A DNA stretch of 60,478 nt, counting the filler. It is 7 parts of 7 records of this genome, joined end to end, with 100 filler letters (N's around TTAATTAATTAA, not from the genome) between each part and the next. Parts side by side here need not be neighbours in the genome. Positions count along the whole stretch, not along the records: positions 18,900 to 28,493 come from SRR31156797_16185; 6 more parts are not named here. One strand, 5' to 3'. The notes under the pieces were generated by a model, which was not told the DNA's origin, searched no databases, and saw only the letters and a program-made list of their open reading frames with translations. Position numbers and translations under genes: made by a program. Shown here piece after piece: positions 7,188 to 48,547 of the stretch (position 1 is its first letter; every line of letters begins with the position of its first letter).

Positions 7188-7287
7188 NNNNNNNNNNNNN
7201 NNNNNNNNNNNNNNNNNNNNNNNNNNNNNNNTTAATTAATTAANNNNNNNNNNNNNNNNNNNNNNNNNNNNNNNNNNNNNNNNNNNN
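7188..7287. other. Artificial contig spacer
   Basis: 100 nt of N with central TTAATTAATTAA; composition changes across it. Confidence 0.98.
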
Positions 7288-13604: not shown

Positions 13605-13704
13605 NNNNNNNNNNNNNNNNNNNNNNNNNNNNNNNNNNNNNNNNNNNNTTAATTAATTAANNNNNNNNNNNNNNNNNNNNNNNNNNNNNNNNNNNNNNNN
13701 NNNN
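13605..13704. other. Artificial contig spacer
   Basis: N run with TTAATTAATTAA. Confidence 0.98.
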
Positions 13705-17811: not shown

Positions 17812-18799
17812 GTGCCTAAGATCACCCACCGAATAAAAAATGTATTATGGATTCTCTTTCTGACTGTTGTGCTTTTTAAATTATTTCAATTTTACAAGAC
17901 GGAAGCATCAACCAACAATCAGGTGTTAATTGTCTCTGGAATTCTATTTGCTACCAACGTTTTTCTTCTCTATTTACACCACAGGAAACAACGTTTGATT
18001 TTTTTCCTGGAAGGATCACTGGACGCTCTCGAGCTACCTGTAACCACAACCGACATGAACATGAAATGGGTTTTTGTTAATAAAATCACTGAAAGCCTGC
18101 TTGTGCAGCGCAACTTAAATAAAAGGAACGTTATAGGAAAACATTGTTCCAACTGGAAGGCTGATATCTGCGAAACGGAAAACTGTGGTATCCGTTGTTT
18201 GCGCAATGGAAAAACTAGAACACATTACAATCAGGACGTCCCAAGCCAGCCAAGTGTTTATATGCAAGTTGACACCCAATATATCACTGATGACAGTGGT
18301 AAGAAAATTGGGCATGTAGAATTTGTAACGAATGTAGATGCTTTAAAGCAGCTAAAAACTGTAGTTGAAGTTCTTGCTCCAACATCTGAGACCTTGCTTG
18401 ACCTTTCAAGGGGAGTAGCCATAAACTCAGAAGAACTTTCAGAAAGATCTGGGTCATTGACCGCTTCATCCGAAGAAATGTCTGGGAATATGAATGGTGT
18501 GTCTTCGGCAATGGAGGAGTCTACTACCAATGTAAGCATGGTGGCTTCAGCCGGAGAGGAAATGTCGGCAACGATAACTGAGATATCAGAAAATACTGAG
18601 AAAGCCCGTTTAATTACAGAGGAAGCAGTTGCTCATTCCGCAGATACCTCGGATCAGGTTGATAAGCTCGGAGATTCTGTTGGGGAAATCGGCAAAGTAG
18701 TTGAGACTATTTCAGAGATTTCCGAACAAGTAAACCTTCTCGCATTGAATGCAACTATTGAAGCTGCAAGAGCAGGAGAGGCGGGCAAGGGTTTTGCTG
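17812..18799 (+). CDS. Methyl-accepting chemotaxis protein with two N-terminal TM helices and a PAS domain, 3'-truncated
   Basis: [27 protein letters not shown] signalling hairpin; GGAGG SD before GTG. Confidence 0.92.
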
Positions 18800-18899
18800 N
18801 NNNNNNNNNNNNNNNNNNNNNNNNNNNNNNNNNNNNNNNNNNNTTAATTAATTAANNNNNNNNNNNNNNNNNNNNNNNNNNNNNNNNNNNNNNNNNNNN
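18800..18899. other. Artificial contig spacer
   Basis: N run with TTAATTAATTAA. Confidence 0.98.
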
Positions 18900-18900
18900 T

Positions 18901-18990
18901 TGTCCAAGGCCGACTATAACCAATTGCCCACGACCGACGTTAGCACGTTGCCCACGGCCGACCCTTGCCGGCTGCCCTCGTCCAACATTC
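18901..18990 (+). repeat. 24-bp coding tandem repeat (4 visible units)
   Basis: Units at 18901, 18925, 18949, 18973; the CPRPT codons differ only synonymously (TGT CCA AGG CCG ACT / TGC CCA CGA CCG ACG / TGC CCA CGG CCG ACC / TGC CCT CGT CCA ACA). Confidence 0.92.
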
Positions 18991-19227
18991 TCAGCCGCCA
19001 TGTGTACTCCTCCACCACCAATGATGTATGAGTATGATATGCCTGAGTATTGGGATGATGAGGGATACTATGATTACTATGGTGAGGATGAGTGGTATGG
19101 CATGTATGATGCTGGTGAAGCCGGGTACTGGGAAGATGAGGTGGAGCAGGCTGCTTATGATGAAGAAGAATGGTACGATGATGAAGCCTACGATGAGTGG
19201 GACATAGATGATGAGGAGGAGTGGTAG
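18901..19227 (+). CDS. 5'-truncated putative RiPP precursor/substrate: tandem CPRPTxxx repeats plus acidic-aromatic C-terminal tail
   Basis: The frame of ORF 19000-19227 is open back to the contig edge: CPRPTITN CPRPTLAR CPRPTLAG CPRPTFSAAM CTPPPP MMYEYD...DDEEEW*; directly upstream of kinase/lyase/LanC. Confidence 0.85.
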   Translation, partial: CPRPTITNCPRPTLARCPRPTLAGCPRPTFSAAMCTPPPPMMYEYDMPEYWDDEGYYDYYGEDEWYGMYDAGEAGYWEDEVEQAAYDEEEWYDDEAYDEWDIDDEEEW

Positions 19228-19265
19228 AATTATAATTTCCTACAAAGGAAATGTTAACTACTGTA

Positions 19266-19300
19266 ACCGTGGGCCGTAAAACGCCCGCGGTAATTTTTTT
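19266..19300 (+). terminator. Stem-loop/terminator between precursor and modification genes
   Basis: ACCGTGGGC-loop-GCCCGCGGT (one G-U) followed by AA and T7. Confidence 0.75.
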
Positions 19301-19353
19301 CTGCACATTATCACTGTTTGTAAGGAGAAAGGATCATTTATCCTGCAGAGCTA

Positions 19354-20340
19354 GTGCAATATTTATTGCATAGAAATATCATATCCTCGTCAGAGGTGGT
19401 TGAACGCGGCGTCCAATTATCAGGTGATATACGTGAACGTTCTGTTTTGCAGACTCTTGCCATAGGGGGAGTGCCAGCCTACGTCGTCAAGCAGGCCCGG
19501 GCAGCAGAAACCATGGTAAATATCCATCAGGAATTAAAAGTCTACTCCTGCCTTGAAAAAATACCAGAATTGGATGGCAGTATTCCACCACTGATAGCAG
19601 CAGATGTGGACAGGGGACTGCTGGTGCTTGGCTGGGTAGGAACTGCTGATTTGCAGTATTCTCATATGCCAAAAGATGAAATGTCCAGTATGCTCGGAGC
19701 TTTGACGGGCCAGCTGCATTTTTTAACCAGGGAAGTCGCCGGTCTTAGCGGTATAAGTGAAAGGCCATGGGTATTGTCTTGCCTTGGAAAGAATCCTCGA
19801 TGGCTCCCTGAAGAGTTACCTGAGGTCATAGGACGTGCCTCAAGAGTTGACCTGTTGGAAACTGGATTGCTATATGGGGAGAAGGGCTGGAAGCCGGATG
19901 CTCTTATCCATGGTGACTTGAAGCAAGAGCATTGCCTGCTGGTTGACAATGATGCACAGATTGAACTTTGTCTCATTGATTGGGAACTGGCAGGCTATGG
20001 TGATTCAGCCTGGGATGTAGGCAGTATAATCAGTGACATCCTGTTTGATCGAGGGTATGAGGCGAGTGGTGGTGGATATAGTGCCGCCGAAATCATTGAA
20101 GAGGGAGACATAGGCAATTTTTTCCGTCTCTATAGTCAGCATTGTATGGTAGACAGTGACTTTTTGTACAGGGTAGCATTATTTACCGGCGCTCGCCTCC
20201 TGCAGACAAGTATGGAGTCTGCCGCAGCGTATGGAATGGGAGCATCATCTGGAGTCGACATGCTTGTGTCCATGGCAGAACAAATTTTCAGCGATCCCCA
20301 AGCGTTTGCCCAACTGCTCAGTTATGGAGCAACAGTATGA
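19354..20340 (+). CDS. APH/choline-kinase-fold phosphotransferase, putative LanK-type Ser/Thr kinase
   Basis: YVVKQ (ATP Lys), LIHGDLK, LIDWELAGYGDSAWDVG; ATGA overlap with next gene; true start may be slightly upstream. Confidence 0.85.
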   Translation: MQYLLHRNIISSSEVVERGVQLSGDIRERSVLQTLAIGGVPAYVVKQARAAETMVNIHQELKVYSCLEKIPELDGSIPPLIAADVDRGLLVLGWVGTADLQYSHMPKDEMSSMLGALTGQLHFLTREVAGLSGISERPWVLSCLGKNPRWLPEELPEVIGRASRVDLLETGLLYGEKGWKPDALIHGDLKQEHCLLVDNDAQIELCLIDWELAGYGDSAWDVGSIISDILFDRGYEASGGGYSAAEIIEEGDIGNFFRLYSQHCMVDSDFLYRVALFTGARLLQTSMESAAAYGMGASSGVDMLVSMAEQIFSDPQAFAQLLSYGATV

Positions 20341-21293
20341 GTAGGCAAGCGGGGCGGCTGGATGACCAGGATCAACTGGGTAAAGCACTGATAAAGGCTA
20401 TTGCGTCGGTTGTTCAGCGCTACGGAAATGGCCCGCTTTCAGCGAACAAAGAAGAAAAACAAAAATTGATCAATTTGCTGTATCAATTTTGGTACACTCG
20501 TTCCGAGGGAGAGAAAGATTATCAGTCTTTCTCCCACCCTTTTTGGGATCAGATTTATCGAACTATGCACCAGGGAACCTACCAATGGGAAACCGGGTGG
20601 AAGGTCGATAAAGTTTCCTCAGCGGGAAGAGTTCAGGCTTTTTTGGGTGATGAGGTGCGATTGCTTGATCCTGGCGATTACATCTCTTTGTCTCATCCAG
20701 GATCAATGCCGGCTCCGGGGACTGAGATCGAGGTTGTAGCCCGCCGGGAAGCAACAGAGCCGCAAGAGGGGTTTTGGATCACCCATTCTACTGCCTGGAG
20801 CGGAGTGCAGCCTGTAATAGTTCGTCTTTATTGGAACACTTCTCCAGAGGGCGCTGCCTGTCTTGTTGAACAGATCACTCGATTTATTCCAGATAGCATT
20901 CCTTATAGTTTGAAACTGCCTGTTGATGGAGCTGGTTTCCAGCGTGCAGATGCTGCTGTATTCTACTTTCAGGGAAGTTTTTTTTCCCAGCTGCGACCAC
21001 TGCTGCATGCTGTCCATCGAACCATGCAACCGTATCTCTGGCCTGAGGTACCGGGATTAACCAAAGAGTGTGAACCCGGATTGGGTTTGGCTGAAGATCC
21101 TCTTGAAGAGTTTGAAAGTTTTGGTTTGCATCGCTGTCGTTTGATTGCCGAAGGCGTGCTGTCAGCAACGGCATCTGACTGGCACGACCTGCAGGAGGTC
21201 GGTGCGGTCGTGAAGGCATATTTAGCAACAGCAGGGCTTGATCCTGATCGCCCCTACCTTAACCTCTATGCCAGGACAGATTATGACTGGTAG
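20337..21293 (+). CDS. HopA1-like domain protein, putative LanY-type phosphoSer/Thr lyase
   Basis: VRLYWN, YSLK, RADAAVFY, GLGLAEDP, ESFGLHRCRLIAEG, GLDPDRPYLN pattern of the HopA1 family. Confidence 0.85.
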   Translation: MSRQAGRLDDQDQLGKALIKAIASVVQRYGNGPLSANKEEKQKLINLLYQFWYTRSEGEKDYQSFSHPFWDQIYRTMHQGTYQWETGWKVDKVSSAGRVQAFLGDEVRLLDPGDYISLSHPGSMPAPGTEIEVVARREATEPQEGFWITHSTAWSGVQPVIVRLYWNTSPEGAACLVEQITRFIPDSIPYSLKLPVDGAGFQRADAAVFYFQGSFFSQLRPLLHAVHRTMQPYLWPEVPGLTKECEPGLGLAEDPLEEFESFGLHRCRLIAEGVLSATASDWHDLQEVGAVVKAYLATAGLDPDRPYLNLYARTDYDW

Positions 21294-22638
21294 AACCAAA
21301 TTCCGGCAGCACGTAGTGCAAAGTAATATGAAAGAGCGCGCGTCCTTTTCGAACCTGCGCACTGCAGAAAAGATCGGGCAGCGTCTGGTGCACTCCGCTG
21401 TCTGGCACGATGGGCGGTGTACTTGGACCGGCGATGATGTCAAGCTGATCAACGATGAGTGGCTGGTTATTCATCAAACTGTCGATCCTTATCTTTATTC
21501 TGGTACTGCTGGTATTGCATGGTTTCTTACACTCTGTCATGAGGAAACACATGGTAAGGGGATGAGACGGGCTGCCATCGGTGCAGTTCGACAATCATTG
21601 GCCCTTTTAGAACTTCACGATAACTCTGATTCGTCGTTGGGCTTATATGATGGATTAACAGGGATTGCCCTTGTGGCCTTTGCTGCAGGCCGTCGACTTA
21701 ATGAGCCTCCACTTATTACTGCTGCTCAATTACTTGTCAAAAAGATCAGTGACCGTGTAGAGGCAGAGCAAATAGGCAATGCTGTTGATTTTATTTCCGG
21801 GGCAGCTGGCATTATTACGGGACTTTTACAGATTGCCGGAGAAACCAACGATCGGTCTCTTTACAGGCTGTGTGAAAAAGTGGCGGACCAGTTGTTGAAG
21901 AAGGCACATCACACGAGTTGTGGTATGTATTGGCCCGAAGAAGGACTGCAACGTAACGATATCGGACTATGCGGCATGGCCCATGGCATTTCCGGTGTTG
22001 CCTATGCTCTCATGGAGTTGGCTGCTGTTACCGGTAATGAGTTATATCTGAGGGCTGCTGCCCAGAGTTTATTGTATGAGCGAAGCTGGTTTCATTGTGG
22101 TGAGATTAACTGGCCAGATAATCGTGGCTCCGATGAGACGCAAACATCTGCTGTGGAGCAGGAACTCGTTTATCCAATATATTGGTGTCATGGTGCGGCA
22201 GGGGTAGGGTTAGCCAGGCTGCGCGCCTATCAGTTGACAAGTGATCCGCTTTATCTGGCTGAGGCGACGGCCGCACTGTATGCAAGCTCTCGTTATGCAA
22301 AGCGAATCCTTACTGAGACCAGAAATAAACGACAGCTGTCGCACGATGTCAACATGAGTGTCTGCCATGGTCTTGGCAGCATCATTGAATTGTTTGTATA
22401 TGCATCAACTGTACTGGGAAATGACGAATTCTATCGCCGAGCATGCTCCATCGGTGCGTTTAGTGCCAGAGCTTCGGCCAGGGAACAGGGGAAATGGCGG
22501 TGTGGGATTCAGGATGGTGGGGAGGCGCCTGGATTGATGCTGGGACTGGCAGGTATTGGTTGTACTTTTCTCCAACTTCACAATCCTTCAGGGTTGCGAC
22601 CGGTTGGTCTGATGAACCTCGGCACTGCTTATTGCTAG
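21283..22638 (+). CDS. Stand-alone LanC-like lanthionine cyclase
   Basis: Seven GxxG repeats (LYSGTAG, LYDGLTG, ISGAAG, GMAHGISG, WCHGAAG, CHGLGS, LMLGLAG); Zn ligands in WCHG and CHG and catalytic His of AHG intact; ATG at 21283 overlaps the lyase stop. Confidence 0.9.
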   Translation: MTGRTKFRQHVVQSNMKERASFSNLRTAEKIGQRLVHSAVWHDGRCTWTGDDVKLINDEWLVIHQTVDPYLYSGTAGIAWFLTLCHEETHGKGMRRAAIGAVRQSLALLELHDNSDSSLGLYDGLTGIALVAFAAGRRLNEPPLITAAQLLVKKISDRVEAEQIGNAVDFISGAAGIITGLLQIAGETNDRSLYRLCEKVADQLLKKAHHTSCGMYWPEEGLQRNDIGLCGMAHGISGVAYALMELAAVTGNELYLRAAAQSLLYERSWFHCGEINWPDNRGSDETQTSAVEQELVYPIYWCHGAAGVGLARLRAYQLTSDPLYLAEATAALYASSRYAKRILTETRNKRQLSHDVNMSVCHGLGSIIELFVYASTVLGNDEFYRRACSIGAFSARASAREQGKWRCGIQDGGEAPGLMLGLAGIGCTFLQLHNPSGLRPVGLMNLGTAYC

Positions 22639-28493: not shown

Positions 28494-28593
28494 NNNNNNN
28501 NNNNNNNNNNNNNNNNNNNNNNNNNNNNNNNNNNNNNTTAATTAATTAANNNNNNNNNNNNNNNNNNNNNNNNNNNNNNNNNNNNNNNNNNNN
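28494..28593. other. Artificial contig spacer
   Basis: N run with TTAATTAATTAA. Confidence 0.98.
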
Positions 28594-48447: not shown

Positions 48448-48547
48448 NNNNNNNNNNNNNNNNNNNNNNNNNNNNNNNNNNNNNNNNNNNNTTAATTAAT
48501 TAANNNNNNNNNNNNNNNNNNNNNNNNNNNNNNNNNNNNNNNNNNNN
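48448..48547. other. Artificial contig spacer
   Basis: N run with TTAATTAATTAA. Confidence 0.98.

Follow-up and report, generated by a model that had tools for sequence, protein, structure and literature searches.

The repeats found immediately before a set of class V-type lanthionine enzymes raise the question of which kind of substrate these enzymes act on, and whether it is a short precursor peptide, as a sequence-only reading of the locus had proposed, or something larger. The window, i.e. the whole stretch of 60,478 nucleotides that was analysed, consists of seven contigs concatenated with six artificial linkers between them (Table 1). The contig carrying the repeats starts at 18900 and its reading frame is open to base 18901, the cut in the repeat frame being the contig join and not a stop codon. 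On the other side of this join, a gene for a methyl-accepting chemotaxis protein (MCPsignal domain, 17812-18799), itself truncated where the preceding contig ends, is unrelated to the repeats.

The translation of 18901-19227 on the + strand comprises the CPRPT units, a Cys, a stretch beginning with TPPPP and a D/E/Y/W-rich tail ending in EEEW, followed by the stop codon. A six-frame translation of the window contains CPRPT four times, every time within this fragment, and the repeat observation is confirmed, far beyond chance. When the CPRPT blocks are compared pairwise, they are 60-87% identical over 15 nt and exhibit 23 synonymous and no non-synonymous differences, in agreement with the earlier claim that the codons vary only synonymously and that it is the peptide which is selected. 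The spacing described for the fragment is also correct: each of the later Cys residues is preceded, at a distance of four residues, by a Thr or Ser (TITNC, TLARC, TLAGC and SAAMC), and the Cys of the regular units lies four residues ahead of a Thr. The repeats directly precede the LanK/LanY/LanC set. The Met at 19000 was rejected as a start codon, as had been suspected, since the relatives have a conserved Met at this place of their terminal unit, FSAAMC.

Table 1. Features of the repeat locus in the window and in related loci (coordinates with a locus handle refer to that locus)
Feature	Location	Strand	Basis or remark
Contig linkers	7188-7287, 13605-13704, 18800-18899, 28494-28593, 48448-48547, 54497-54596		genes across any linker are not neighbours
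Artificial contig join N44-TTAATTAATTAA-N44, as in all six linkers	18800..18899	.	5' part of the protease-repeat gene is missing from the window
Four Cys/Thr units CPRPTITN, CPRPTLAR, CPRPTLAG, CPRPTFSAAM and closing Cys	18901..19005	+	candidate methyllanthionine ring sites
Acidic/aromatic tail, 73 aa	19006..19224	+	net charge -31; 42% D/E, 26% Y/W/F
Conserved C-terminal motif of the tail, EEWY...Y-D/E-D/E-W-D-I/L/M	19165..19224	+	alignment; shared by L040 of the CHAT type
Stop codon of the protease-repeat gene	19225..19227	+	translation
LanK-type kinase, APH fold	19354..20340	+	Pfam PF01636, E 2.4e-12
LanY-type HopA1-family phospho-Thr/Ser lyase	20337..21293	+	Pfam PF17914, 95.7 bits (cut-off 22.7)
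LanC-like cyclase with WCHG and CHG motifs, start codon uncertain	21238..22638	+	Pfam PF05147, 192.9 bits
426 aa protein with CHAT/C25-like caspase-fold domain, DPRC-type repeats and acidic tail ending in YTDWDMGDD	L040 6846-8123		directly before LanK-LanY-LanC
458 aa protein with probable trypsin-fold domain, then Cys/Thr repeats (e.g. TTPIVCEVIVTKPVVCQIKT...)	L049 978-2354		directly before LanK, LanY
Giant repeat proteins	L003, L004, L006, L007, L008, L011, L052, L087, L107 and others		upstream of distant LanK-LanY-LanC

With regard to the full-length protein, the small hidden precursor that had been proposed is not supported by the relatives. The 108-residue fragment showed no match among proteins of 59-189 aa, and an exhaustive phmmer search against 1.84 billion representatives returned four matches, all to unrelated low-complexity repeat proteins; this search is uninformative because the composition of the query defeats it. 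Against longer proteins, ten matches were obtained, all of 627-693 aa and all ten with a Peptidase_S8 domain (PF00082). The best relative, P0036 (693 aa), matches 90% of the fragment at 88% identity. Judged from these relatives, from which the architecture is transferred, 18901-19227 is probably the 3' end of the gene of a subtilisin-fusion protein of about 690 aa, of which the fragment would be the last ~15%. In this protein, the repeats precede a long acidic tail instead of forming a C-terminal core behind a leader. The N-terminal half is not present elsewhere in the window, where tblastn matched only 18901-19191. In the cassette loci, which were reached via homologues of the HopA1 protein, the ORF directly before the kinase gene likewise encodes a large protein, of 623-796 aa.

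The fusion protein comprises, in this order, a Lys-rich N-terminus, a prodomain, a CPIPPCDC motif, the S8 domain, the array, a terminal CPRPTFSAAMC and the acidic/aromatic tail. A Pfam S8 match is present in six of the six S8-type proteins from related loci, and residues D181, H221, S395 and N278 are invariant in all 13 sequences. The catalytic triad and the oxyanion Asn are thus kept in the relatives, the S8 domain of the window's own protein lying past the contig edge. In the relatives, the alignment with subtilisin BPN' spans the entire S8 domain, with a similarity that is generic for subtilisins only. No signal-peptide-like or membrane segment was found in any member of the fusion family that was checked, and the fusion protein therefore meets the cytoplasmic enzymes.

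The AlphaFold2 model of P0036, based on a 13-row alignment, had a mean pLDDT of 37.8 and is uninformative on the array or the tail; only the prodomain (residues ~21-112) reached 62-78, and was modelled as beta-alpha-beta-beta-beta-alpha-beta. An ESM Atlas search with the array plus the tail gave no usable match (TM <=0.22). Among the anti-phage defence models of PADLOC, P0036 matched a generic subtilase model only, and LanK, LanY, LanC and the CHAT-type protein of L040 matched none. Between the prodomain and the S8 domain, the relatives exhibit an invariant CPIPPCDC-x-P-x-TPKG motif (residues 137-151 in P0036), and a C-x3-C-x4-C cluster is found within the S8 domain; both the CPIPPCDC motif and this cluster are possible additional sites for rings, disulfides or metal. 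Two loci encode a stand-alone paralogue of the prodomain, of ~155 aa, directly upstream of the fusion gene (L043 6418-6894 and L046 6366-6830), with 34-35% identity to the prodomain of the fusion (E 1e-11 and 2e-13, respectively). This paralogue may act on the protease as a free-standing inhibitor or chaperone.

The three enzymes encoded after the fusion gene look competent from their conserved residues. In LanK, the HGDxK and D-W-E catalytic motifs are invariant in eight of eight aligned homologues. Its score against the NCBIfam LxmK model is 40 bits, far below the cut-off of 315, and it is not an LxmK equivalog. Used as a single query against genome contigs, the kinase gave 79 pattern matches and no relatives. 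The LanY homologues show 40-79% identity. In LanC, which is most like the cyclase domain of LanM, residues C317, H318, C376, H377 and H249 are invariant in seven of seven sequences, and the WCxG and CHG motifs presumably provide the expected Cys-Cys-His zinc ligands, with residue roles as in NisC.

The association of these enzymes with the fusion protein is conserved. A protease-repeat gene is found directly before LanK-LanY in all 12 loci of the clade with upstream DNA (the window, L001, L038, L039, L040, L041, L042, L043, L044, L045, L046 and L049), some of which are near-copies of each other (L038/L039 and L043/L044/L045); L037, which is without upstream DNA, was left out of this count. The protease is of the S8 type in ten of these loci, CHAT-like in one and trypsin-like in one. 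LanC comes next after LanY in the loci checked. The flanking genes vary by locus, and no transporter is conserved among them. There is no small conserved ORF within the cassette, and its only Cys/Thr-rich gene is that of the protease fusion of 627-796 aa with its C-terminal non-core tail. Mobile-element genes are present near the cassette, namely an integrase core (L038 2490-3080), an IS1595 transposase and a plasmid RepA (L043 12390-13319; L046 2320-3171), and the four-gene cassette looks mobile.

In a FastTree phylogeny of 108 LanY sequences, the protease-linked clade comprises 11 rows against 97 others, with a local support of 100, not bootstrapped. Within this clade, the N-terminal domain of the fusion is an S8 domain in nine rows, CHAT/C25-like in L040 and probably of trypsin fold in L049. 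The CHAT assignment is based on ESM Atlas structure matches with TM values of 0.50-0.55, and the trypsin-like assignment on Nal1_C and Trypsin_2 Pfam matches below their cut-offs together with a GDSGS motif. The Cys/Thr array is kept with all three protease types, and the acidic tail is also kept in L040.

The anatomy of the array was analysed on 205 units from 16 sequences, i.e. 15 non-redundant relatives and the window. Each unit has one Cys, a Thr is present in 204 of them, and the arrays of the relatives contain 12-24 Cys. The first Thr follows the Cys at +4 in 138 units and at +3 in 42, and the next Cys follows the first Thr at +6 (80 units), +4 (50), +5 (41), +8 (16) or +3 (14). The strict (T/S)xxxC register that had been claimed for the repeats is valid for the C-proximal 8-residue units, but family-wide the Thr-to-next-Cys distance ranges from 3 to 8. 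The units upstream of the C-proximal ones are longer, and the window retains only the latter. The units abut, with only P-R-P or x-R-P between Cys and Thr, and their interiors are variable (2-7 residues).

The ends of the arrays bear on the polarity of the putative rings. A Thr or Ser is found within nine residues ahead of the first Cys in 14 of the 15 complete arrays, and all arrays end on a Cys without a further R-P-T motif after it. Pairing of each motif Thr with the next downstream Cys is favoured because every Cys is then used, whereas the reverse pairing leaves both ends unpaired. The polarity usual for lanthipeptides, from Thr to downstream Cys, is thereby favoured, and the earlier proposal of such rings joined by Pro-Arg-Pro gains from the complete arrays being Thr-first and Cys-last. 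The conserved Cys-to-Thr spacing could equally reflect reverse-polarity rings or a recognition motif of the kinase.

Based on these observations, we propose, with a probability of roughly 0.6, that the protease-repeat protein of ~690 aa is the substrate, and that LanK, LanY and LanC turn its units into methyllanthionine rings. From gene order only, we infer that the fusion protein is what the three enzymes act on. The protein presented to them would carry, behind its Lys-rich N-terminus, prodomain and intact S8 domain, ~15-20 units with one Cys and one (R/P)-P-Thr each, a closing Cys and the tail. LanK would phosphorylate the motif Thr, LanY would eliminate the phosphate to give dehydrobutyrine, and LanC would add the thiol of the next downstream Cys. 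This would yield a chain of small methyllanthionine rings, each enclosing 2-7 residues, with Pro-Arg-Pro as the connecting segments. The protease would thereby acquire a rigid, protease-resistant and polycationic stalk, which the tail would mask like an anionic pro-piece. More speculatively, the protein might be a natural 'lanthi-protein', in which a polycationic arm of ~12-24 rings serves in targeting or anchoring, is silenced by the tail until the tail is removed, and bears a swappable protease payload. Together with the protease-less giant repeat proteins of the sister clade, such proteins would make up a widespread class of protein-sized class V substrates that has gone unrecognised; this extended proposal is a possibility that we put forward only tentatively.

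The acidic tail is matched to the array in charge. The more positive the array, the more negative the tail (r=0.88; Spearman 0.88, n=15; mean sum of the two charges -3.3 +/- 5.1), although the sequences are related and n=15 overstates their independence. The match persists across expansions of the array or the tail. L038, with a charge of +40/-47, has gained NPRDPRCIRPT units as well as DYG repeats, and the CHAT-type protein of L040 is also balanced, at +13/-15. The aromatic content of the tail is 22-29% in the S8 members, and its end bears a conserved EEWY...DDWD motif. Most likely, the acidic tail masks the basic stalk electrostatically. In defensin propeptides, an anionic pro-piece balances a cationic host-defence peptide, and here too an acidic segment balances a cationic segment of the same chain. 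In contrast to defensin propeptides, the present protein is bacterial, its acidic segment is C-terminal and highly aromatic, and its cationic part is presumed to be a thioether-stapled Pro/Arg repeat. The tail may also be a docking element of the follower type; a complex prediction of LanK, LanY and the 108 aa fragment, made without supplied alignments, gave a score of 0.02 and is uninformative on this point.

Several of these features could also be expected of a self-processing multi-core precursor, in which the protease would be a LanP-like peptidase or leader, and would either cut out many single-ring peptides or free the whole array, minus the tail, as one polycyclic cationic peptide. Class I lanthipeptides have their leaders removed by S8 enzymes, and the present cassette likewise encodes an S8 protease together with lanthionine enzymes. 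The catalytic triad is invariant, the charge-matched tail resembles a pro-piece, and stand-alone prodomain paralogues are encoded upstream in L043 and L046. Nevertheless, we consider such self-processing rather unlikely, although release of the array in one piece may occur. The units are linked only by Pro-Arg-Pro or similar sequences, and Pro-flanked bonds are poor subtilisin sites. No conserved protease recognition sequence flanks the units, which argues against the multi-core precursor that the sequence-only reading had envisaged as one option. Moreover, CHAT-like and trypsin-like domains replace the S8 domain in sister loci, so that one cleavage specificity would be needed from three folds. 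Unlike LanP, the protease is fused to the presumed ring-forming repeats and is without a signal peptide, and its similarity is to subtilisins in general.

Compared with class V systems, the cassette has the same three families, LanK, LanY and LanC, in one operon directly after a Cys/Thr-rich substrate gene. It differs in that the candidate substrate is an enzyme of ~690 aa with 12-24 ring sites and a long acidic tail, and not a short leader-core peptide. Its LanK falls far below the curated LxmK cut-off, and its hosts appear to be Gammaproteobacteria-like MAGs and not actinomycetes. Among enzyme-fused RiPP precursors, borosins carry the core on the same chain as its modifying enzyme. The fusion proteins are similar to these in having a full-size enzyme domain and a presumably modified segment in one polypeptide, but here the enzyme domain is that of a protease, and separate genes encode the modifying enzymes. 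A class V example with a LanC cyclase, SmoA/SmoC, is termed 'class Vb' in a review.

The protease-fusion proteins appear to be part of a wider group. More distant LanK/LanY/LanC loci encode, upstream of the enzymes, Cys/Thr/Pro repeat proteins of 300-856 aa with 22-75 Cys and without a protease. A composition filter, which asked for an ORF of 100 aa or more, for 8 or more Cys and for a Cys+Thr+Pro share of 28% or more, let through 33 of the 60 more distant LanY loci with at least 3 kb of upstream DNA, although a few short passes in GC-rich loci may be spurious, and the protease fusions themselves fail this filter. The giant repeat proteins are found in Undibacterium, Sideroxydans, Sulfuricellaceae, Bryobacteraceae and Longimicrobium. 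Some have a conserved N-terminal domain of ~100 aa; in others, the repeats begin within ~10 residues of the Met and the protein ends in ...GCTCLPMTVGPVITVAGQC. No Pfam match was found for them. Like the protease fusions, they are protein-sized, contain tens of Cys and Thr, and are encoded directly upstream of the same trio of enzymes. They differ in that they exhibit no protease domain, no acidic tail and other repeat motifs, and in that their LanY is on the other side of the tree.

In Eyles et al. (bioRxiv 10.1101/2020.12.17.423248), HopA1 proteins occurring with LanC, mostly in Proteobacteria, are described as not consistently associated with precursor peptides, and it is proposed that larger proteins might be modified by HopA1+LanC clusters. 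The loci described here fit this suggestion. The same study (10.1101/2020.12.17.423248) also considers unclustered precursors. These would be required if the repeats were an unmodified Cys-rich linker, with metal or disulfides, and if LanK, LanY and LanC acted on an unlinked peptide, a reading that would be in line with the frequency of Cys/Pro-rich linkers in secreted proteins. We regard it as distinctly improbable. The Cys is paired with a Thr in 204 of 205 units, and the array stays with the enzyme trio across three changes of protease fold and in many protease-less relatives. In addition, given the lack of a signal peptide, the Cys residues would stay reduced in the cytoplasm, and the cassette contains no conserved small ORF that could be the substrate instead. 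A metallothionein-like role was rejected on similar grounds, every Cys being Thr-paired and the array travelling with the Lan enzymes.

No protease-fused or protein-sized class V substrate was found in the literature searched, in which chemistry journals and supplements were incompletely covered. What is unfamiliar is not the enzymes but the architecture of the substrate, with its modular protease payload. Lanthionine rings are known from short peptides. If the proposed modification of the fusion protein is correct, lanthionine chemistry would extend to proteins, here to a protease of 70 kDa, the only plausible substrate in the conserved cassette, which offers as many as two dozen sites for rings, and a testable answer would be provided to the HopA1+LanC clusters of Proteobacteria that seem to be without precursors. 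Stapled by thioethers, a Pro-Arg-Pro stalk would serve in nature as a linker that resists proteases, and would be useful in protein engineering. The charge-balanced tail suggests a built-in masking mechanism, and the swap among three protease folds suggests a modular design of payload plus stalk. With regard to genome mining, precursor searches restricted to short ORFs miss the whole group.

The repeat region was also examined in contigs of three public sequencing runs, which were aligned to the window. Run X1, the probable source, contains the window's version and a diverged second version of the locus (records 3 and 4, 18924-19475). The second copy spans the tail, the intergenic region and the start of the kinase gene, with a depth of 11-14 versus 25, and matches P0036; it stems either from a second strain or species, related to the first and present in the same sample, or from a paralogous cassette. 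Between 18954 and 18999, all nine differences between this copy and the window are at third codon positions, and among the 40 differences listed, 25 of the 35 that were classified are third-position differences. The third-position bias of the differences and the synonymous-only CPRPT variation indicate purifying selection in the repeat frame. In X1, the unitigs diverge within the repeat and extend upstream into more units (...TS-CPRPTLVG- and CPRPT-LVN-CPRP); the array therefore runs past the contig edge, and the frame continues upstream of the Met at 19000 as had been supposed. An assembly artefact or a non-coding repeat at a contig end, which the position of the repeat against the contig edge and the branching of the unitigs might suggest, is extremely improbable in view of the synonymous-only variation among the repeats, the third-position strain differences within them and the full-length relatives from independent collections. 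Of the kinase gene, run X2, from a salt marsh, contained a piece of 269 bases that differs from the window at 12 positions, and it contained nothing else of the locus.
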